From Roseivirga sp. (GTDB lineage Bacteria > Bacteroidota > Bacteroidia > Cytophagales > Cyclobacteriaceae), in contig NZ_JAGDZM010000009.1 of the NCBI RefSeq assembly GCF_049099775.1, positions 74,643 through 138,642 on the forward strand: DNA of 64,000 bases. Direction: 5' to 3'. Made by a program: the position numbers and the translations under genes. The notes under the pieces are model-generated. The model made no database searches and was not told the DNA's origin. It was given only the letters and a program-made list of their open reading frames with translations. Below, piece after piece: positions 3,653 through 64,000 of this stretch. Every line of letters starts with the position of its first letter. Position 1 is the first letter of the stretch.

Positions 3653-4393
3653 GTGATAGGCAAGCTCATTCAATATATCTATACAGGCTGGTGCGGCATA
3701 ATGTTCGTTATTCCCATGGTCATTTTTAGTCCTTTCATGGTAATCCCACTTTTGATTTCCAGAAAACTGGAAGGCATTACCTTCTTTTTTATCAGGTGTT
3801 GGGTTTACATGTTTAGCCTTACTACAGGAATTTGGTTTGTAGGGCACAACAAAAAATCAGTTGACACTAAAAAATCATTCATCTTCCTTATTAATCATAC
3901 CTCTTTTTTAGATGCCTGTGCTATTCCAGTCGCCATACCATCGAGTTTAGTGGGGCTTGGCAAAAAAGAGCTTTCTAAAATTCCTGTTTTTGGCTGGGTT
4001 ACCAGCAGATTTGCAGTGTGGGTAGATAGATCCAGTCCAGAAAGTCGGAAAGAAGGAATTACAAGAATGAAAGAACTATTAAGTGGAGGCACTTCTGTAT
4101 TGGTGGCACCAGAAGGCACAAGAAACAATACCGAAGAAACGCTTTTACCATTTAGGCATGGTCCGTTCCGATTGGCAATAGAATCCAACATCAATATTAT
4201 TCCCGTAGTGATACATCGCGCTTCAAAACTGATGAAACGAGGAAGCCTTCTTTTAAAACCGGGTGTAGTTCACTCATACGTCTTACCAGAAGTTTCTGTT
4301 GAAGGAATGACAGAGAGTGATGTTGAACGCCTAGCAGGCGATGTTTTTAAAATGATGAAAGATAAGATTGTTGCCCTAGACGAAAGCGTCTAA
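3653..4393 (+). CDS. plsC: 1-acyl-sn-glycerol-3-phosphate acyltransferase (PlsC family)
   Basis: NHTSFLD (HX4D), VDRS, APEGTRN, PFRHGPF. Confidence 0.85.
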   Translation: MIGKLIQYIYTGWCGIMFVIPMVIFSPFMVIPLLISRKLEGITFFFIRCWVYMFSLTTGIWFVGHNKKSVDTKKSFIFLINHTSFLDACAIPVAIPSSLVGLGKKELSKIPVFGWVTSRFAVWVDRSSPESRKEGITRMKELLSGGTSVLVAPEGTRNNTEETLLPFRHGPFRLAIESNINIIPVVIHRASKLMKRGSLLLKPGVVHSYVLPEVSVEGMTESDVERLAGDVFKMMKDKIVALDESV

Positions 4394-4447: not shown

Positions 4448-5596
4448 ATGAACACGCTCTACAAAAACATATTATTAGGTGCATTGGCCTTTTGCGTAGC
4501 AGCATGTGCAACAGGTAAAAATGCTTTTGATAAAGGCGATTACAATACTGCACTCGATCGAGCAGTCAAAAGACTACAATCCAACCCAAATAATAAAAAA
4601 GCACAAGATGTGCTAATGGATGGTTATAGCGTAGCCTCAGATTTCCGTCTAAAAAGAATACAACAGTTTAAGAGAAGTCAAAACGATTTTAAATGGGAAT
4701 CTATTTATCGTGAATATGCTCAATTGAATAACTATTACAGAGATATTCAAAGGTGTCCTTCTTGTATGAGTTTAGTATCTCCAAAAGAATACTTGATAGA
4801 ACAAGAGGAAGCAGCATCGAAAGCCGCCACAGTACAAGTAGATATTGGTAAGGAGAGTTTAAGCCTTAATACTATTGAAACTGCCAGACAAGCTTATAGC
4901 CATTTCGAGATGGCACTTCGCTTCAATAATGATATTCCAGGTATTGATTCATTGCTAACACAGGCCCGATTAATTGGTACTGTCCGTGTCTTAATTGAAC
5001 CTATTCCTATTCATTCTAGAAGTTTAAAATTGACGAATGAGTATTTAGAAAATAAGATGTTCGAATACTTAGATGCTTACAGCAGAGATAGATTTGTTCA
5101 GTTCTTTAATGCACAAGAATCTGAAGAAAGAGGTGTTGAGCCTGATCATATTTTAAGCTTAGAATTCGATGATTTTGTTTTAGGACAAGCAAAAATCGTT
5201 TCGAAAACCGTAGAAATAAAGCGGGATAGCGTGATTGTAGGACAGTATACTGATGATAACGGAAAAAAATTCGATGTCTACAATACGGTTAAAGCTGATT
5301 TTACATCAAATGAAAAGTCACTTTTCTCGGCAGGCGTTTTGAATTTTGAAATTCGAGATGCCTATACCAACAAAGTGCTCACGCAACGAAAACTAAGAAG
5401 TGAGGATGTTTGGAAACATAGCTGGGCATCTTTCAATGGCGATTCTCGCGCTTTGGATAAAGACGAAATTAGAATGTCGAAACGTAAAGAATTACCTCCG
5501 CCAGATCCTCAAACGCTCTTTATTAGCTTTATAGACCGTGTTTATGGCCAAGTAGAAGGCAACATCCGACAGTTCTATCGTAATACAGAATTATAA
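4448..5596 (+). CDS. Hypothetical lipoprotein
   Basis: Lipobox-like VAAC after a hydrophobic signal; helical N-terminal half. Confidence 0.7.
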   Translation: MNTLYKNILLGALAFCVAACATGKNAFDKGDYNTALDRAVKRLQSNPNNKKAQDVLMDGYSVASDFRLKRIQQFKRSQNDFKWESIYREYAQLNNYYRDIQRCPSCMSLVSPKEYLIEQEEAASKAATVQVDIGKESLSLNTIETARQAYSHFEMALRFNNDIPGIDSLLTQARLIGTVRVLIEPIPIHSRSLKLTNEYLENKMFEYLDAYSRDRFVQFFNAQESEERGVEPDHILSLEFDDFVLGQAKIVSKTVEIKRDSVIVGQYTDDNGKKFDVYNTVKADFTSNEKSLFSAGVLNFEIRDAYTNKVLTQRKLRSEDVWKHSWASFNGDSRALDKDEIRMSKRKELPPPDPQTLFISFIDRVYGQVEGNIRQFYRNTEL

Positions 5597-5697: not shown

Positions 5698-6693
5698 ATG
5701 AAACAGCAATTCCTCGCACTTTCCATTATCCTTATCCTTACTAGCTCATGTTTATCTTCTGATAATAAAACTCCTGTAGAGCTCCCCGAAGATCCAAAAG
5801 CAACATGGCAGATAGTTCAAAATATTGATGTGAATGAAATCAATAATGACCTTGTTGACGGTAAAATGACCATTGATGTCGGCATCTATTTTCCATCGAA
5901 CTTTGATTCAAACTTTGAGAAAGTCACGCTCGATAAAATGATGACGAGCTTTTTAGCAGCTAAAGAAATTTATGCCCCCACTGATGTTCAATTAAAACTA
6001 CTTTGGGTAAAAACCGGAGAAGTAAACCCAAAATACTTTTCCATCGAATCTAACAAAGTACCTACTGTACCCAGAACAGAATATGCCAATATGTATGTAC
6101 ATAGCAAAAGACACCCTTCTATCCCAACTGAAAGAACTTTGAATGCTTTTGATCACATCATAGAACCAGATGAAAGTAATTCAAGAACCATCTATTTAGT
6201 CGTACTTCAAGAAGTATTCTATCCGTTTTTAGCTGTTTCGGAGGGGAGAAATTGGATGACTAAGGCCGTAAGAACGGGAGGTATGTCATTTCCCACATAC
6301 TCCTTTGTGAACACTCTTCCTGAGCGATTCCGAGGGGTAATGACTATAACTAACCTGAGCCGAACAGATCGTTTGAGAAGTACTATTGCTCATGAAATAG
6401 GGCACAAAGCCATGAATGTAAGCCATGAATACATGGATACGGACCCCGAAAATGAAATCTTTGCAGAAGGTGGGCTTATGCTTTATGGAGCTGGGGAGGA
6501 AATACCCTCTGGTGAGGCAGGACGCTGGCATTTAGAACGTTTACACCTATCTCCTTTTATTTATCGCTTAAACAGTGAAGGTGTAAAAATATGGAATGAG
6601 GATTACCTTGAAGGAGGGCACTATTACGACCCTATTTATGGCGATAAAGTAAGGCACTTCAATAGCAAACCACCTATTAAAGAAGACTGGTGA
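5698..6693 (+). CDS. Lipoprotein, putative zinc metallopeptidase
   Basis: Lipobox LTSSC; AHEIGHKAMNVSH zinc motif; GGLM Met-turn-like. Confidence 0.65.
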   Translation: MKQQFLALSIILILTSSCLSSDNKTPVELPEDPKATWQIVQNIDVNEINNDLVDGKMTIDVGIYFPSNFDSNFEKVTLDKMMTSFLAAKEIYAPTDVQLKLLWVKTGEVNPKYFSIESNKVPTVPRTEYANMYVHSKRHPSIPTERTLNAFDHIIEPDESNSRTIYLVVLQEVFYPFLAVSEGRNWMTKAVRTGGMSFPTYSFVNTLPERFRGVMTITNLSRTDRLRSTIAHEIGHKAMNVSHEYMDTDPENEIFAEGGLMLYGAGEEIPSGEAGRWHLERLHLSPFIYRLNSEGVKIWNEDYLEGGHYYDPIYGDKVRHFNSKPPIKEDW

Positions 6694-47900: not shown

Positions 47901-50465
47901 CTATTTATCAGTTGAACCTTCTTCTTTCTTCTTTTTAGGAGCTCTTTTCTTCTTCACTTTCAGCGTCAATTGATCTGACTTACCATCGTGATCAGCACTC
48001 AAAGTATCTCCTTCGTTGATATCTCCTTTCAAGATCTCTTCGGCTATCTGATCTTCAAGATATTTCTGAATCGCTCTATTCAAAGGTCTTGCACCATATT
48101 GTGGATCAAAGCCCTTATCTGATAAGAAGTCTTTTGCCTTCTCCGTCAAAGTTACTTTGTATCCCATAGCCTCAACGCGACTTAAGAGTTTACCAAGAGA
48201 GATATCAATGATATTATGAATGTCTTCTCTACTTAAAGAGTTGAAGATGATTACATCATCCAAACGGTTAAGGAATTCTGGACTGAAAGTCTTTTTCAAG
48301 GCTTTCTGAATTGTATCCTTCATCATTTCTTCCTCACCGTCACGTTTCGTTTGGGTACTGAATCCAATACCTGAACCGAAATCTTTCAAATCTCGAACAC
48401 CAATATTCGATGTCATGATAATGATTGTGTTTCTGAAATCTACTCTTCTTCCTAATCCGTCAGTTAGAATACCATCGTCCAATACTTGAAGTAAGATATT
48501 GAACACATCTGGATGCGCTTTTTCGATTTCATCTAATAAAACGACAGAGTAAGGCTTTCTTCTCACTTTTTCAGTCAGCTGACCACCTTCTTCATAACCT
48601 ACATAACCTGGAGGCGCTCCTACCAACCTAGATACGGAGAACTTCTCCATATATTCACTCATGTCAATTCTAACCAGTGAATCTTCCTTATCGAAAAGGT
48701 AAGTCGAAAGTACTTTCGCTAATTCTGTTTTACCAACTCCTGTTGGGCCTAAAAACACGAATGTTCCGATTGGCTTTGCGGGATCTTTCAAACCGACTCT
48801 TGTTCGTTGAATCGCTTTGGTCAGTTTCATAATTGCCTCATCCTGACCGATTACTCTACCTTTCAACTGCTCGCCCATACCAACTAATTTGGCTTGCTCT
48901 TTCTGAGCTACACGTTTAGTAGGAATACCAGTCATCATAGCAATTACTTCTGCTACGTTGTCTTCATCAACAGTATATCGCTGGAGCTTACTTTCTTCTT
49001 CCCATTTAGATTTAGCTGTATCTAGCTGATCGATCAGCTTTTTCTCGCTATCTCTTAATTGAGCTGCTTCTTCGTATTTCTGACTCTTTACGACTCTATT
49101 TTTTTCTTTCTTGATGTCTTCAATCGCTTCTTCCAACTTCACAATGTCATCAGGAACGTGAATATTATTGATATGAACTCTAGCTCCTGCTTCATCCAAA
49201 ACATCAATCGCCTTGTCTGGCAAAAACCTATCTGAGATATATCTATCTGATAATTTCACACATGCTTCTAAAGCTTCTTGCGTGTAACCAACATGATGAT
49301 GCTCTTCATACTTTTCTTTGATGTTTTCTAGAATCTGTACCGTTTCTTCAGGAGTAGTAGGGTCCACCATTACCTGTTGGAACCTTCTAGCCAAAGCACC
49401 ATCTTTTTCGATGTATTGTCTGTACTCATCAAGTGTAGTTGCACCAATACATTGAATTTCACCCCTCGCTAATGCAGGCTTGAACATATTCGAAGCATCT
49501 AAAGAACCTGATGCGCCACCGGCACCTACTATTGTATGCAGTTCATCAATGAATAAGATCACCTCAGGCGATTTTTCAAGCTCATTCATTACTGCTTTCA
49601 TTCGCTCTTCGAACTGACCACGATATTTCGTGCCAGCTACTAAAGATGCTAAGTCAAGGGTAACCACTCGTTTTCCGAAAAGTACTCTTGATACTTTCTT
49701 CTGAATAATACGTAAGGCCAAACCTTCCGCAATAGCACTTTTACCAACACCCGGTTCACCAATAAGAATTGGGTTATTCTTCTTTCTACGCGACAGGATT
49801 TGGCCTACTCGTTCTATCTCTTTTTCTCTTCCTACTATCGGATCTAGTTTGCCGTCTTCAGCATATTTGGTCAGGTCTCTTCCGAAATTATCCAAAACTG
49901 GTGTTCTAGATTTTTCGCCTCCCTTTCCTGAAGGTCTATCAGACCCTCCTCCAGAACCACCGCTACTTCCAAACATTTTAGAAGAATCTCCTTCTGGATC
50001 ATCTGTATCTGAAGAGGCCAATGGATTGTCAGTCTGGTATTCTAGCATTTCTTTTACTACTTCATAGTTTACGTCGAATTTCTCAAGAATCTGAGTAGCA
50101 ATATTATCCTCATCCCGAAGGATTGAGAGCAATAAGTGCTCAGTTCCAATCAATTGACTTTTGAAAATTTTTGCCTCTAAATAGGTAATTTTGAGCACCT
50201 TTTCAGATTGTCTTGTCAAAGGAATATTGGCTAAATTCTTCACATTGTGATTTGCCGTTCCTTTGGTAGCGCGCTCTATAGCTTCTCTAAGTTCTTCTAA
50301 AGAAGTACCTAGTTTTTTTAGGATGCTTACCGCAACACCTTCTCCTTCTCGAATCATCCCTAGTAAAAGATGTTCGGTCCCGATGTAATCATGCCCCAAT
50401 CGAAGGGCTTCTTCCCTACTTAATGAGATAACTTCCTTTACTCTATTTGAAAATTTTGCTTCCAT
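47901..50465 (-). CDS. clpC: ATP-dependent Clp protease ATP-binding subunit ClpC
   Basis: Two Clp-N repeats, GEPGVGKS, UVR coil, GPTGVGKT, GAPPGYVG. Confidence 0.96.
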   Translation of the reverse strand: MEAKFSNRVKEVISLSREEALRLGHDYIGTEHLLLGMIREGEGVAVSILKKLGTSLEELREAIERATKGTANHNVKNLANIPLTRQSEKVLKITYLEAKIFKSQLIGTEHLLLSILRDEDNIATQILEKFDVNYEVVKEMLEYQTDNPLASSDTDDPEGDSSKMFGSSGGSGGGSDRPSGKGGEKSRTPVLDNFGRDLTKYAEDGKLDPIVGREKEIERVGQILSRRKKNNPILIGEPGVGKSAIAEGLALRIIQKKVSRVLFGKRVVTLDLASLVAGTKYRGQFEERMKAVMNELEKSPEVILFIDELHTIVGAGGASGSLDASNMFKPALARGEIQCIGATTLDEYRQYIEKDGALARRFQQVMVDPTTPEETVQILENIKEKYEEHHHVGYTQEALEACVKLSDRYISDRFLPDKAIDVLDEAGARVHINNIHVPDDIVKLEEAIEDIKKEKNRVVKSQKYEEAAQLRDSEKKLIDQLDTAKSKWEEESKLQRYTVDEDNVAEVIAMMTGIPTKRVAQKEQAKLVGMGEQLKGRVIGQDEAIMKLTKAIQRTRVGLKDPAKPIGTFVFLGPTGVGKTELAKVLSTYLFDKEDSLVRIDMSEYMEKFSVSRLVGAPPGYVGYEEGGQLTEKVRRKPYSVVLLDEIEKAHPDVFNILLQVLDDGILTDGLGRRVDFRNTIIIMTSNIGVRDLKDFGSGIGFSTQTKRDGEEEMMKDTIQKALKKTFSPEFLNRLDDVIIFNSLSREDIHNIIDISLGKLLSRVEAMGYKVTLTEKAKDFLSDKGFDPQYGARPLNRAIQKYLEDQIAEEILKGDINEGDTLSADHDGKSDQLTLKVKKKRAPKKKKEEGSTDK

Positions 50466-51820: not shown

Positions 51821-51871
51821 GACTGTGACTTGGTGTCGAAGTTAGGACAAATTGACTATTTTTGTGCCCTT

Positions 51872-58944: not shown

Positions 58945-59628
58945 TTAAGCGGCCAGTGCGCTAATGTTCGGAATAGTAATTAAGCTCCTGCTATAAAGAA
59001 TAGTCCCTTCTTCCTTCAACTCATTAATAAGCGTAGTTACTGTCTGTCTTGATGAACTTATCAGACTTGCGATTTCATTGTGTGTAAGGTAATTTTTGAT
59101 CACCAAGCCGTCTTCGGCAGGCTTACCTTCTTTATGTGCCCAGTCTACCAAGAAACTTTTCAACCTAGCCTTCACATCTTTAAAGACAAGGTTTGCATAT
59201 CTATGCTCTAGTTTTCTGAGCTTCTCGCCCATTTTCTTTGAAAATGATAGGGCTAAACTAGGGTGCTTCTCCATCAGCTTTTCAAATTCTTCCATCGTAA
59301 AAGTGCAAAGTATCACTTCACTCGAAAGAATTTCGGCAAACTCTTGACTTGGCAACATAGACGTGATTGGGATTTCACCAAAAAGATCACCGGTAAGAAT
59401 TATATCCTTGATCATTTCATTACCAAGACCGTCTACTTCGCTTATTTTAATTTTCCCGTTGATGAGGAAGTAGAGTCTCTTAGACTCGTCATTTGCGAAA
59501 TGAATCGTTTGACTCTTTTTCATTCTCACAAAACGTGAGATTGCACATAGATCGTGAATTTGTTCTTTACTTAGGTTGGCAAAGAGATCATAGTTTCTCA
59601 AGTACCAGTATTTTATTTCTTTCTGCAT
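58945..59628 (-). CDS. Crp/Fnr family transcriptional regulator
   Basis: cNMP domain GDLFGE; HTH LTHNEIASLISSSRQTVT. Confidence 0.92.
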   Translation of the reverse strand: MQKEIKYWYLRNYDLFANLSKEQIHDLCAISRFVRMKKSQTIHFANDESKRLYFLINGKIKISEVDGLGNEMIKDIILTGDLFGEIPITSMLPSQEFAEILSSEVILCTFTMEEFEKLMEKHPSLALSFSKKMGEKLRKLEHRYANLVFKDVKARLKSFLVDWAHKEGKPAEDGLVIKNYLTHNEIASLISSSRQTVTTLINELKEEGTILYSRSLITIPNISALAA

Positions 59629-59631
59629 GAA

Positions 59632-60255
59632 TCATAAGTTTATTACCAATTGAATCAGTGCCATAGCGATTAAAATTCCGCCCAACACCTTATTATAGTT
59701 TTTCGTCAACTTTTTGAAGATGAAATCCCGATTCCTGGTAGTAAGCTCGGCAACAAGCCACTGCAGTAAAAATGCACCCAAGGCCGTTCCTATTACGAAA
59801 GCAACTTGAGATGGTAAAGAATTATTTTCTAAAATAGAATTGCTTCTAAGCAACGTAATTATAAAAAGCCAATAAGGATAAAGTTGTGGATTGAGCATAC
59901 CAAACGTAGCGCCTACCCAAAGTTCTTTTCCTTGCTTGTCTAATTTGTTATTCTGTTTTGTTGAGGCTTTTTGTAAAAACAAATAGACCCCGAAAATAAG
60001 CAGGATTCCAACTGTCAAATACTTGAGGTAGTCGTCGAGTCCTTCGTATTGTGATATAAAATTTGAACTGCCAATGGCCAATCCACAATACAATAACTCA
60101 GGTAAACTACCGCCAAGACCGAAGATGATGGCTGCTTTCTTATTCTTATGAAGGGCCGTATGGATTGTACCCATATTAACCGGTCCTAGTTGCAATGATG
60201 CAACAAAACTAATCGCTGTAGCGACTATCAACGCTTCAATTACCGTCCAAATCAT
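59632..60255 (-). CDS. LysE-family translocator
   Basis: SLQLGPVN, FGMLNPQLYPYW; 6 TM segments. Confidence 0.78.
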   Translation of the reverse strand: MIWTVIEALIVATAISFVASLQLGPVNMGTIHTALHKNKKAAIIFGLGGSLPELLYCGLAIGSSNFISQYEGLDDYLKYLTVGILLIFGVYLFLQKASTKQNNKLDKQGKELWVGATFGMLNPQLYPYWLFIITLLRSNSILENNSLPSQVAFVIGTALGAFLLQWLVAELTTRNRDFIFKKLTKNYNKVLGGILIAMALIQLVINL

Positions 60256-61328
60256 TTGGCAGAAGCAGTTTTAGTTCCGTTCATTTGATTTTGAGATAAT
60301 TCATTGGATGAAAAATGAGTTCTCAATAGTCTGAACATTTCCCAAAAAGGAGTAACCCTAGCGCCTTGCTTCATATTTTCGATACTGACTAAACATGAGG
60401 TTTTCATACTTGTCATGGTATCCTTATATGCTTGAAGCAAGCTATATTTTGGATCGTAGATATGACCTGGTTCCGAAGTCACGCCATTGAGCTCCAATAT
60501 TTTTATGTTTCGCCCAGCGTATAAGTCTTCTATCGAACTTACTTTTAAGTCAAATCTCCCAAAATTAAAACCATCTACATCAGCTGCTATCTCATCGAAA
60601 ACACTCACCAATTTATCATTGATTAGGTGTTGCCCACTTAAAAATTTAGTGCCTAAACAGTGGTTTCCAATAGGCTGCAAATTTTCATATGCACCTTTGG
60701 GTAAAACATCGTTTAAATGCGTTCCAAATTTCTCTTCAAGTACAGGCATCTGGAGTTTTGCTCGTTCGCTTTTTGCCAACAAGGTTCGAATTGTTGAAAC
60801 TCCATCTCCAGTTACACCCAAGAATTCCTTTTGTACAATTGAAGTAATATTACTGGTATTACTAATCGGTAACTTGTGATAAAGTACACCGAGCTCAATT
60901 TCAAAATCAACGAATTCTTGAATGATAAAATCCTGATGGTTTTGGGTAATGTAATGTTCAAGGTTCAGTTGGCTGTCCAACTTTTCTACTTCAGCGCCAC
61001 GTTCACCAACATCGGGTTTGATAATCATCGGGAAGGTCAATCCAGTATTAGTAATTCCTGCTACAACATCTGACAAGCTAGTATTAGCTTCAAAGAATAG
61101 CGTAGTGGGTTTATACTTAGGATTAATCTTTTCTAAGATGTCTATTTTGGACTCGCCAAAAACACCTCCATGAATAATTCCAGGATTGGCAGCGGTAAAG
61201 TATGTTAAAGACTTTGCTCGTGCTGCTAAATAAATCCAATAAGGCACTAGAGGCATAAAAAACAACCAAAAGGGCCAATATTCATAGTAGATTATCTTAA
61301 CCAGAAAAAGTGGTAACCTATGTCTCAT
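60252..61328 (-). CDS. ATP-grasp fold protein (D-Ala-D-Ala-ligase-like, function unknown)
   Basis: IIKPDVGERG, IIQEFV, GRFDL, ILELNG. Confidence 0.8.
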   Translation of the reverse strand: MRHRLPLFLVKIIYYEYWPFWLFFMPLVPYWIYLAARAKSLTYFTAANPGIIHGGVFGESKIDILEKINPKYKPTTLFFEANTSLSDVVAGITNTGLTFPMIIKPDVGERGAEVEKLDSQLNLEHYITQNHQDFIIQEFVDFEIELGVLYHKLPISNTSNITSIVQKEFLGVTGDGVSTIRTLLAKSERAKLQMPVLEEKFGTHLNDVLPKGAYENLQPIGNHCLGTKFLSGQHLINDKLVSVFDEIAADVDGFNFGRFDLKVSSIEDLYAGRNIKILELNGVTSEPGHIYDPKYSLLQAYKDTMTSMKTSCLVSIENMKQGARVTPFWEMFRLLRTHFSSNELSQNQMNGTKTASAK

Positions 61329-61437
61329 AAATCAAAATCGAAAGATAATCAACGCCTGAACATAAACTTAGTTTTGTCAAGAATAAGTGTTAACCAACAC
61401 TTTGTCACTCTGCCGTCTACAGAAGCGTCTGCTTAAT

Positions 61438-61454
61438 GACAACTAGCGTGCCAA
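61438..61454 (-). promoter_or_regulatory. Candidate sigma54 (-24/-12) promoter
   Basis: TTGGCACGCTAGTTGTC vs consensus TGGCAC-N5-TTGC (GT at -12). Confidence 0.65.
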
Positions 61455-61535
61455 GTCGTATTTTATCATTATACTCAATTGATTATCAATAGTTTATATT
61501 CATACAGCTTAAATAATATACTAAATAAAATTACT

Positions 61536-61657
61536 ATATTTCGTGATTTTCACTATTATTCAGGAATAGTGATAACTAATTCAATTATGGGGTATTAGAT
61601 CATTTAGACTGCTTTTTGATCACAAAATTATTGGTATAATTTTTTTCACGAAATATC
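61536..61657. promoter_or_regulatory. Candidate enhancer (UAS) sites for the adjacent activator
   Basis: TCACGAAATAT inverted at 61536-61546 and direct at 61646-61656; third copy at 63641-63651. Confidence 0.6.
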
Positions 61658-61762
61658 AGGAAATAACATAAAATCAATACTCCTTACATTTTTGCCTGCT
61701 CGCATTCATTTAGCTCAACACTATTCCAGACAGAAGGAACAATTGAAACACATGATGAAATT

Positions 61763-63637
61763 CTAACCCGAGACACCGCGCTTTATTTGTAAGCGCTTCA
61801 TTCGAGACTCGAGGGTGGTCGGCTTCATGCCTAAAATTTTTGCTGCTCCCTTATCACCGCTTACTCGCCAGGCTGTTTTCTGGAGCACACTTATGATGTA
61901 CTTTCTTTCGAATTCATGAAGCGTATCAAAATCGCTTGAAAAAGTTTGTGATTCGGTTCGTGGAATCCAATCGCCGAGTTCTAAAGCGCGACCACTACTA
62001 AGAATCACCGATCGCTCAATTACATTTTCCAATTCTCGGATATTACCCGGCCAATGATACCCTTGTAAGGAGTTAATTACGCGCTTTGGAATTGACATTA
62101 CCTTCTTGCCAATCTTGGCCGAATATCGGTTCACAAAGTGCCTTGTCAAAAGCGGAATATCTTCTTTCCGCTCTCGCAATGGCATGCTGTATAACGGAAA
62201 TACATTGAGTCGATAAAACAAATCAGCTCTAAAAGATCCTTCATCTACTTCTTTCTGTAAATCTCTATTCGTTGCTGCAATTACGCGCACATCTACCTTA
62301 ATGGTATTTGTACTACCAAGGCGATCGAATTCACCTTCTTGAAGGGCCCTTAGCAATTTTGATTGCAACTCTAAAGGGAGTTCTCCAATCTCATCTAAGA
62401 ACAAGGTTCCGCCATCGGCCAACTCGAATCGGCCAATTTTCTTCGCAATAGCACCTGTAAACGCCCCTTTTTCATGCCCAAACAACTCACTTTCTATCAG
62501 GTTTGCTGGAAGCACGGCACAGTTTACTTTTACCAAAGGACGGTTGCTTCTTTTACTAATATTATGAATAGCTCGAGCCAGTAACTCTTTCCCCGTTCCA
62601 GATTCACCTAGAATAAGCACCGTTGCATCAGTGGTAGCTACTTGTTCGGAGGAAGACAGTACCGACCTGAATTTGCTGCTTTGGGTAATAATTTCTTGAA
62701 AATTATGTTCGTACTTAATTTCCTCTTGTAGGTAAGTGTTTTCCGCCTCCAGTCTGTCTTTTAGACTTTCAACTTCTTCTACCGCTTCGACTAGTTTCTG
62801 GTTCGCAATTTTTCTTTCTATTTCAACCGCTGCCCGATCTGAAAACAGCTTTAAAATTTCAACCTCCTCTTCAGAAAGCTCCAGTTTAGTGTCATTAAAT
62901 ATTGCAATGTGACCAATACAGTCATTCTCTGAAGAAAGGATTGGCACACCAAAGTAACCTTCTACACCTTTTTCTCTTTCAAACTTATCATGAACCCCTG
63001 TTTCCAGTAACCAGGTTTCGGAATTATCAACCACAAATTTGCAAGGGGTGCCGTGGGTATCGTACTCTACGTTTTCCTGCAGCCTGTTGTCTTTAAAATA
63101 AGCAAGTGTTCTTAATCGAGATTTAGAGGCATCAACACACTCCGTTACAATAGTCATGTGTACCCCCAGCGATCGACAAATGTTCTCTACAAGTGCTACA
63201 AAAAAATCTCCCCCTAAGGTATTGGATGTTGTTTCTGAAACTGAACGCAGTAAACGCTCTTTTCGCTTTCTTTCTGTTATATCTAAGATGAAACTTACAT
63301 TGTAAGCTTCACCTTCAAATTCAATGTGATTTACAAATATCTCAACTGGTATCTCTGTTCCGTCCTTTCTTAAATGCGTTGATTCGAGCCTAACTTTTTT
63401 CTCAATCTTAGATCTTTCCCAAAGCTCAGCATAAGTATCCGCGTTGAAATTTGGGTTTATTCGGGTGATATTTAATTTCTTGAATTCTTCGGCGGTATAG
63501 CCGTAAAGGAATTGAGCAGTTTCATTAGCGAATTTGAGCTGACCAGTCTCGTCCATCCAAAAAATAGAAGCAAGCGCTCTTTCTACGGTAAACTCCGATA
63601 GCTTAGTGTAGTCGATAGAGGGTTCAAATCCTTTCAT
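61763..63637 (-). CDS. Sigma54-dependent enhancer-binding protein (PAS-GAF-AAA+-HTH, FhlA-like)
   Basis: PAS (IFWMD...DITERK), [43 protein letters not shown]. Confidence 0.95.
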
Positions 63638-63765
63638 ATTTCACGAAATATCGTAATATTATATGAGATATGGGTTGAACAAGAATTCTTTATCAAATGT
63701 CAGGAAGCCGCGCTTCTGATACATCCTAATAAATTTGTTCTCCGTTAGAACCCTGAAATAAATAT

Positions 63766-64000
63766 ATGACTATGCGACGATCGCTAATTTTTTCACTGCT
63801 CAGTTTCTCCTTTTTTATGCTGACAATTTCAGCAAAAGGCCAAAATCAGTCTTATGATTTAAAGCATTATAATTTAAAGAAAGGGTTGGCTATTCAGGGT
63901 TATGACCCGGTGGCTTATTTTACTGAAAACAAGGCAGTAGAAGGGTCAGACAAGTTTTCTGCGAAAAAAAATGGCATTACTTATCATTTCTCAACAGAGG
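63766..64000 (+). CDS. YHS domain-containing secreted protein (3'-truncated by window end)
   Basis: MTMRRSLIFSLLSFSFFMLTISAKGQ signal; LAIQGYDPVAYF, GITYHFS. Confidence 0.82.
   Translation, partial: MTMRRSLIFSLLSFSFFMLTISAKGQNQSYDLKHYNLKKGLAIQGYDPVAYFTENKAVEGSDKFSAKKNGITYHFSTE

Follow-up and report, generated by a model that had tools for sequence, protein, structure and literature searches.

What switches on a small operon that lies directly downstream of a gene for a PAS-GAF enhancer-binding protein, and do the letters between the two tell where that protein binds? We addressed this question near the end of a 64,000-nucleotide stretch of Roseivirga sp. DNA (hereafter the window), in which the gene for the putative activator lies upstream of, and on the same strand as, genes for a predicted ATP-grasp ligase, a LysE-type exporter and a Crp/Fnr-family regulator. 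An earlier reading, made from the letters of the window without database searches (hereafter the sequence-only reading), had proposed that activator and operon are joined by a complete sigma-54 control architecture. The analysis reported here, which is supported by comparative genomics throughout, makes it likely that positions 61426-61661 form the sigma-54 control region of the ATP-grasp-LysE-Crp operon, with the activator acting from a set of palindromic sites. The coordinates of the features are collected in Table 1.

The 624-residue product of the activator gene carries every sequence hallmark of a bacterial enhancer-binding protein. The match to PF00158, the AAA+ sigma-54 interaction domain, spans residues 316-482 with an E value of 5e-74, the Walker A motif GESGTGKE and the GAFTGA loop can both be read in the translation, and a C-terminal HTH_8 match covers residues 573-616, its helix being kept in the orthologues. 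Together with the PAS_9 and GAF matches in Pfam, these bear out the description as a PAS-GAF enhancer-binding protein that the sequence-only reading had given. The NCBIfam scores of the protein lie under the curated cut-offs for FhlA (416 versus 830 bits), NifA (396 versus 529 bits) and NorR (368 versus 476 bits), so that it is not an orthologue of any of the three; orthologues of 62-87% identity come from Roseivirga and Cytophagales only.

A scan of one genome per species for the ATP-grasp family returned 80 loci, among which 21 Roseivirga loci encode an orthologue of the activator upstream of the ATP-grasp gene and on the same strand. The activator-bearing set analyzed here consists of 21 genome loci and two metagenome loci (23 in total, with some counts made on 22); beyond the 21, an independent search with the activator protein retrieved two contigs with the same layout. 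The comparison set without the activator comprises 567 kb of loci, and related loci in total amount to 789 kb.

Upstream of the ATP-grasp gene, the minus strand of 61438-61454 reads TTGGCACGCTAGTTGTC; the -24/-12 element with GT at -12 that the sequence-only reading had placed there is thus present, and it is kept in all 23 activator loci. The string by itself is weak evidence: the window contains TGGCAC-N5-TTGY exactly once and, with one mismatch allowed, seven times against six expected. Across the loci, TGGCA[CT]-N5-TTGTC lies 115-145 nucleotides upstream of the ATP-grasp ATG wherever the activator is borne, and an ungapped stack of the 23 loci is 100% conserved in TGGCA, in TTGTC and in a GAC eight bases further on, with 14 forms of the N5 spacer and 21 forms of the N8 spacer between them. 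The GT at -12, invariant across this stack, is fixed and no slip. From the usual spacing between a sigma-54 promoter and its start, transcription is predicted to begin near 61427. A sigma-70-type scan match, TTGATA-18-TAAAAT, just upstream of TGGCAC was left unused, as the housekeeping consensus of Bacteroidota differs.

The sequence-only reading had further described a motif that is inverted at 61536, direct at 61646 and repeated as a 14-bp copy at 63639-63652. These copies exist as described: the 11-mer TCACGAAATAT occurs at 61536-61546 (minus strand), 61646-61656 (plus strand) and 63641-63651 (plus strand), and the 14-mer TTTCACGAAATATC stands unchanged at both 61644-61657 and 63639-63652. 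Neither the repeat nor the promoter is readily ascribed to chance; for the repeat, three exact occurrences of the 11-mer within 64 kb stand against 0.04 expected, and none of 100 shuffles reached three. What changes is the description of the unit, which on stacking of the loci is a 16-bp palindrome, TCACGAWATWTCGTGA, with the half-site TCMYGA, and of the proximal site, which is a tandem pair, P1 and P2, the latter being part of a 23-bp inverted repeat at 61550-61572. Half-sites are mixed inside single sites (TCCTGA...TCGTGA) without compensation, which argues for recognition by a protein and not for base pairing.

Palindromes with at most two mismatches fall, in 21 loci, at three conserved places only, namely the activator start, a distal place and a proximal place. 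With positions counted from the T of TGGCAC, every activator-bearing locus keeps the distal site, at -200 to -244, and P1 is kept at -91 to -103; a second site 19 bp from P1 is also present in L008, L011, L014, L016 and L017. At the same threshold there is one palindrome in the 567 kb without the activator, and four in the window against 0.07 expected. The fourth of those in the window (CCACGATATTTCGTGC, 49618-49633) was set aside as a coincidence; it lies inside the coding sequence of an 854-residue Clp-type ATPase (AGTKYRGQFE), where it encodes the conserved GTKYRG. The dyad sites are repeated upstream of the promoter, at -93, -112 and -208, and are co-inherited with the activator; we infer that the activator binds them as enhancers. 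A comparison with contigs of four close strains over 61320-61770 yielded 40 listed variant positions and eight indels, with five more positions unlisted; among the variants listed, none falls in 61320-61458 (promoter and leader), 61529-61575 (proximal pair) or 61641-61677 (distal site).

L005 and L006 are close relatives without the activator gene and without the Crp gene. In both, TGGCAC has become TGACAA and the distal and proximal sites are mutated or deleted; alignment with their nearest relatives reveals a change from CGTGA to CTTGA in the distal site and a deletion of the proximal one, as in L006. The stretch from TTGTC to the ATG, in contrast, is nearly identical in these two loci and their relatives. 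This decay of the upstream elements next to a nearly unchanged leader indicates that the former depend on the activator and that the leader is constrained independently of it.

A further line of evidence is provided by sister activators, which are 911-924 amino acids long and about 50% identical, and which read ...TTLEARMKK... where the Roseivirga proteins read ...TTLESRMKK.... In front of a thioredoxin(-Crp) operon, their loci contain a pair of TCCCAA-N4-TTGGGA palindromes with a spacing of exactly 19 bp, and this pair is located 112-137 nucleotides before (T/C)GGCA(C/T)-N5-T(T/G)G. In three sister loci, the core of the palindrome changes with the recognition helix of the activator while the Crp helix stays SRQxV, a covariation that is suggestive, not proof, of the activator as the palindrome binder. 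Conservation, co-loss and HTH covariation together support the forecast of the sequence-only reading that both the binding site and the target operon of this activator can be predicted from the locus.

Between the enhancer sites and the promoter lies an IHF-like element. An exact IHF consensus had been reported at 61484-61496, and TATCAATAGTTTA on the plus strand there does match WATCAANNNNTTR and stands at a fixed offset, antisense to the operon; most relatives, however, keep instead the orientation of a sense copy, which in the window is AATCAATTGAGTA at 61472-61484 on the minus strand, with one mismatch. The consensus is no commoner than chance in the window (six matches versus 7.25 expected), so it is the position of the match that counts and not its occurrence. 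WATCAR-N4-TTR is found at fixed offsets, -31 in sense or -43 in antisense, in 12 of 22 loci, where shuffles gave 0.49 loci expected and a maximum of four in 1000 trials. Strain variants in the TATCAATAGTTTA copy touch only the N4 spacer or positions that R permits, and WATCAR is kept. The element may be the site of a bend introduced by a protein of the IHF or HU type.

From these elements a scheme can be proposed. The sigma-54 holoenzyme would rest as a closed complex on TGGCAC-N5-TTGTC, and dimers of the PAS-GAF activator would occupy the TCACGAWATWTCGTGA palindromes, that is, the tandem pair about 100 bp upstream and the distal site about 210 bp upstream. An IHF/HU-type bend at the IHF-like element would carry the activator oligomer to the promoter, where ATP hydrolysis, gated by a PAS/GAF signal, would open the complex for a start near 61427, giving a transcript that is predicted to begin with a conserved hairpin. 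The fourth palindrome, at the start codon of the activator gene, most likely limits the activator's own synthesis, and the Crp-family product of the operon may feed back on the promoter through TGTC-N8-GAC, which covers the -12 element and the start. So described, the mechanism follows the classical enhancer-dependent sigma-54 scheme, and the system is of an ordinary kind.

Table 1. Features of the activator gene, its predicted control region and the target operon, in window coordinates
Feature	Position	Strand	Basis or remark
Crp/Fnr-family regulator, third gene; cNMP-binding and HTH_Crp_2, recognition helix SRQTVTT	58945-59628	-	Pfam, NCBIfam
LysE-type exporter, second gene	59632-60255	-	Pfam LysE; 4-nucleotide overlap with the ATP-grasp stop codon
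Predicted ATP-grasp ligase, first gene; 358 amino acids, hydrophobic N-terminus	60252-61328	-	Profile and model
Conserved leader block CGTTGATTATCTTTCG	61339-61354	-	11 nucleotides upstream of the ATG; all Roseivirga loci, including activator-less ones
5' hairpin CUUCUGU-AGACG-GCAGAGU; 7-bp stem, loop AGACG at 61414-61418	61407-61425	-	Covariation
CooA/Crp-type palindrome TGTC-ATTAAGCA-GACG, candidate Crp operator	61426-61441		Overlaps -12 and the predicted start
Predicted sigma-54 promoter TGGCAC-GCTAG-TTGTC; GG 61451-61452, GT 61439-61440	61438-61453	-	Sequence and conservation
IHF-like putative bend element around core TTGATAATCAA	61472-61496		Fixed-offset conservation
Proximal palindrome P1, minus strand TCACGAAATATAGTAA	61531-61546		Offset -93
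Weaker proximal palindrome P2, minus strand TCCTGAATAATAGTGA	61550-61565		19 bp upstream of P1; offset -112
Putative distal enhancer palindrome TCACGAAATATCAGGA	61646-61661		Offset -208 from the T of TGGCAC
Enhancer-binding protein gene; 624 amino acids, PAS_9-GAF-Sigma54_activat-AAA_lid_14-HTH_8	61763-63637	-	Pfam
Palindrome O-self TCACGAAATATCGTAA, putative autoregulatory operator	63641-63656		3 nucleotides upstream of the activator ATG; one mismatch to TCACGAWATWTCGTGA
YHS (seleno)protein-family gene	starts 63766	+	NCBIfam match

The palindrome at the activator start, O-self, lies 0-15 nucleotides upstream of the start codon in 22 of the 22 loci examined, and also in L081. For this copy the sequence-only reading had suggested either autorepression or control of the divergent YHS gene. 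Autoregulation is the part that stands, with the site abutting the ATG in every genome; sigma-54 control of the YHS gene is not supported, as a -24/-12 element was sought on both strands of the intergenic region between the YHS and activator genes in 22 loci and none was found. A sigma-54 promoter for the YHS gene or for the activator gene was rejected on this ground, and with no such element facing either gene O-self is not an enhancer for them. By analogy, O-self is most likely autoregulatory, and the regulation is probably repression.

Within the upstream region of the YHS gene (63690-63735) are a TAAATTTG box and a conserved half-site, AAATGTCAG, of the Crp-type dyad, the right half of which is degenerate in Roseivirga; no consistent placement of the Roseivirga half-site relative to a -7 box was found. 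In many relatives the activator gene and the distal palindrome are separated by a divergent gene for a secreted protein of 268-272 amino acids, the ATG of that gene being 12 nucleotides from the site (L001, 3844-4662 on the minus strand; likewise in L002-L004, L007, L008, L015, L016, L022, L033, L080 and L081). The window is without this gene, and at 61662-61680 it keeps a ...CATGTTATTT... junction that looks like a deletion scar.

A second palindrome, of the CooA/Crp type, overlaps the -12 element and the predicted start. Its GTC and GAC are 100% conserved around 21 distinct N8 spacers in the 23 loci. The right half-site reads GACG in the window, and the full TGTC-N8-GACA dyad, which is the published CooA consensus, is present in eleven relatives. 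In the 789 kb of related loci, TGTC-N8-GACA occurs 67 times against about 12 by estimate, and 32 of 69 cases have, at a fixed distance of 21-22 nucleotides downstream, a TAnnTTTG box; this spacing was seen in other genera and not in Roseivirga. The dyad, often as TGTCAGC-N2-GCCGACA, precedes LysE, YHS and ATP-grasp genes and their neighbours and stands beside Crp genes, in Runella, Emticicia, Arcicella and relatives (L023-L079, for example at 3986 and 6815 in L025 and at 4939 in L049). A TGTC-N8-GACA at 51834 of the window, between Sua5-like and MltG-like genes, was discarded; its -7 spacing is wrong, and about one chance match is expected in the window.

By its sequence and distribution, the dyad looks like the regulon operator of the Crp-family factor of the cluster, and at the promoter studied here it may be a feedback site for the operon's own Crp-family product. 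The T at -12 coincides with the TGTC half-site, which would offer a reason for its being fixed. In two sister lineages, L086 (about 4890-4975) and L083 (about 5905-5960), a TGTC-N8-GACA (or -TACA) dyad is found before the activator gene, with a TAnnTTTG-like box 21-22 nucleotides downstream, an arrangement which suggests that expression of the sigma-54 activator is driven by the Crp-family factor in these lineages. We put forward tentatively, as an idea that is possible but short of probable, that the promoter is shared by two mutually controlling regulators: the Crp-family product would bind TGTC-N8-GAC fused to the -12 element, cover the start and turn off or redirect its own transcription by sigma-54, in a conserved loop that would govern a gene set found across the Bacteroidota.

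The predicted transcript starts with a hairpin that begins two nucleotides after the predicted start, a position that lends this start indirect support. In the alignment 95% of cells are paired, and four of the seven pairs show compensatory changes; none of 500 shuffles matched the observed pairing, controls slid along the alignment gave 33-60%, and RNAalifold predicts the helix at 61407-61425 and no other. The G-U pairs fit the sense strand only, which argues that the region is transcribed in the sense direction. A riboswitch reading was dropped, since Rfam gave no meaningful match on 61200-63900 even at E up to 10 and shuffled sequences fold as stably as the complete leader does (z = 0.14 for the folding energy); the first hairpin alone is supported. 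A second small hairpin, AGTGTT-GGTT-AACACT (window 61372-61400), has a compensatory change in L003/L004. Between the hairpin and the start codon, leader sequences hardly differ among genomes with ATP-grasp proteins of just 72-77% identity. Inside the conserved block near the ATG, TATCTTTC resembles the Bacteroidota -7 box TAnnTTTG and might be taken for a promoter.

How do other explanations of the same elements compare with sigma-54 control by the neighbouring activator? The palindromes could be operators of another regulator, for example the Crp/Fnr-family protein of the operon, with the activator binding elsewhere or not at this locus. The activator and Crp genes are always jointly present or absent in Roseivirga, having been lost together in L005, L006 and L018, so co-loss alone cannot tell which of the two proteins binds the palindrome, and a site that abuts a start codon is in a typical repressor position. 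We nevertheless regard this explanation as unlikely: at least 12 loci in Runella, Emticicia and relatives contain a Crp orthologue beside the ATP-grasp gene and lack the palindrome, the palindrome with Crp/CooA geometry that is tied to the cluster across genera is the other one, TGTC-N8-GACA, the core of the 16-bp palindrome shifts with the activator HTH while the Crp helix stays as it is, and placement near -100 and -200 with a 19-bp tandem is enhancer-like. That the palindromes act as RNA hairpins, either terminators or translation-blocking stems, and not as protein-binding DNA is barely credible. Two copies do abut start codons, that of the activator gene here and that of the divergent 272-residue protein gene in L001-type loci, and in the sister locus L083 a T-run comes after one palindrome, as in a terminator; but the half-sites vary independently and would form stems that contain mismatches and show no compensatory changes, the upstream sites are found in either orientation and lie beyond every predicted transcript, and in the window A-runs, not T-runs, follow the palindromes in the sense direction.

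A more direct challenge is that TGGCAC-N5-TTGTC may be no working sigma-54 promoter, its letters serving, for instance, the TGTC-N8-GAC operator, and that the operon is transcribed from a housekeeping promoter in the leader or by read-through. Several observations favour this explanation or, like the joint loss of activator and Crp genes, weigh against the preferred one. At -12, the window and each of the 23 loci have GT and not the consensus GC, with G at -13 kept. TTGTC and the whole leader persist in L005 and L006, which have neither the activator nor the -24 box, and since these relatives keep the operon as well, another promoter can probably serve it, the -7-like box near the ATG being one candidate. 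No terminator was found to separate the activator gene from the operon, so that read-through from the former is possible. A search of the 64-kb window for rpoN, IHF and HU genes found none, and IHF is poorly defined in Bacteroidota. Among public runs sought for transcript data, those that contain the sequence are DNA contigs only, and the RNA-labelled runs under the same species label yielded nothing.

On the other side, invariance of TGGCAC is confined to loci with the activator, and the box decays when the activator is lost; the pattern of information in the stack, six bases, N5 and five bases, is that of a sigma-54 promoter, a pattern that the sister loci repeat. The proven sigma-54 promoter of E. 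coli pspA also has GT at -12 and works, by analogy with which GT is best taken as a tolerated variant and no disqualifier. Lastly, an intact GAFTGA activator with enhancer-like sites next door has no other known mode of action. We find the challenge distinctly unlikely, and sigma-54 control by the neighbouring activator remains the preferred explanation.

The target of this predicted control can be described as follows. The open reading frame of the first gene has no Pfam match and weak RimK/CPS-like NCBIfam matches, whereas a profile search of the PDB returned ATP-grasp enzymes exclusively, and an AlphaFold model with a predicted local distance difference test score of 83 had its best Foldseek matches in cyanophycin synthetase, Ddl and glutathione synthetase; by these models, the product at 60252-61328 is identified as an ATP-grasp ligase. 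It is 88% identical to its homologue in R. misakiensis, the nearest named relative. The LysE gene adjoins the ATP-grasp gene in all Roseivirga loci, and the Crp gene lies downstream in 21 of the 21 activator-bearing genome loci with enough sequence and is absent from the three loci that have lost the activator.

Across Bacteroidota families, a gene set travels with the activator family in varying order: YHS, a 171-residue DinB-like protein, TANGO2, thioredoxin, ATP-grasp, LysE and Crp. Examples are found at 63766-64000 of the window, at 60-1835 in L001, at 4073-5818 in L081, and in L083, L085 and L086. The YHS protein of the set is secreted, and metal-related genes (MerT/HMA, ArsR, cation efflux) sometimes adjoin. 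The set may have to do with a small thiol, or with a compound that is metal-related or derived from an amino acid.

To our knowledge, both the binding site and the target are known for few sigma-54 activators from outside the Proteobacteria and Firmicutes. For a Cytophagia family of such activators, the locus offers a precise 16-bp candidate motif, a predicted target operon, natural loss-of-function variants and a sister family with a co-changed site. It also flags a widely conserved and uncharacterised gene set (YHS, TANGO2, DinB-like, thioredoxin, ATP-grasp and LysE) whose control appears unusually elaborate.

Among known systems, the PspF/pspA pair of E. coli offers a ready comparison. The pspA promoter is preceded by tandem upstream activator sites, with an IHF site between these and the promoter, the activator gene is adjacent, and the sites also limit the activator's promoter. 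The promoters themselves are alike, TGGCACGCAAATTGTATT at pspA and TGGCACGCTAGTTGTCAT here, both with GT at -12. PspF, however, is without a sensory domain and under the control of PspA, whereas the protein described here carries PAS and GAF domains; pspF is divergent from its target, whereas the activator gene here is in tandem with an operon of unrelated genes; and here a fourth palindrome, set apart from the enhancer by 2.2 kb, is the putative autoregulatory site, unlike the arrangement at pspA.

NifA, FhlA and NorR, the best NCBIfam matches of the activator, share with it the order of GAF domain, AAA+ domain with GAFTGA and HTH_8, and the multiple palindromic upstream sites that are the rule for them are present here too. 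The activator described here differs in an additional N-terminal PAS domain, in its predicted site, TCACGA-N4-TCGTGA as against TGT-N10-ACA for NifA, and in its targets, which are not nitrogenase, hydrogenlyase or nitric oxide reductase. The second palindrome invites comparison with the class II operators of CooA and Crp/Fnr proteins, since its full dyad has the CooA consensus and lies, in related genera, at the class II activator position, and since the operon encodes a Crp-family protein, the recognition helix of which has Q where CRP has E181. In Roseivirga it sits on a predicted sigma-54 promoter instead, where binding of a protein should obstruct polymerase and not recruit it. The right half-site of the window is GACG where the consensus has GACA, and nothing suggests a carbon monoxide sensor here.

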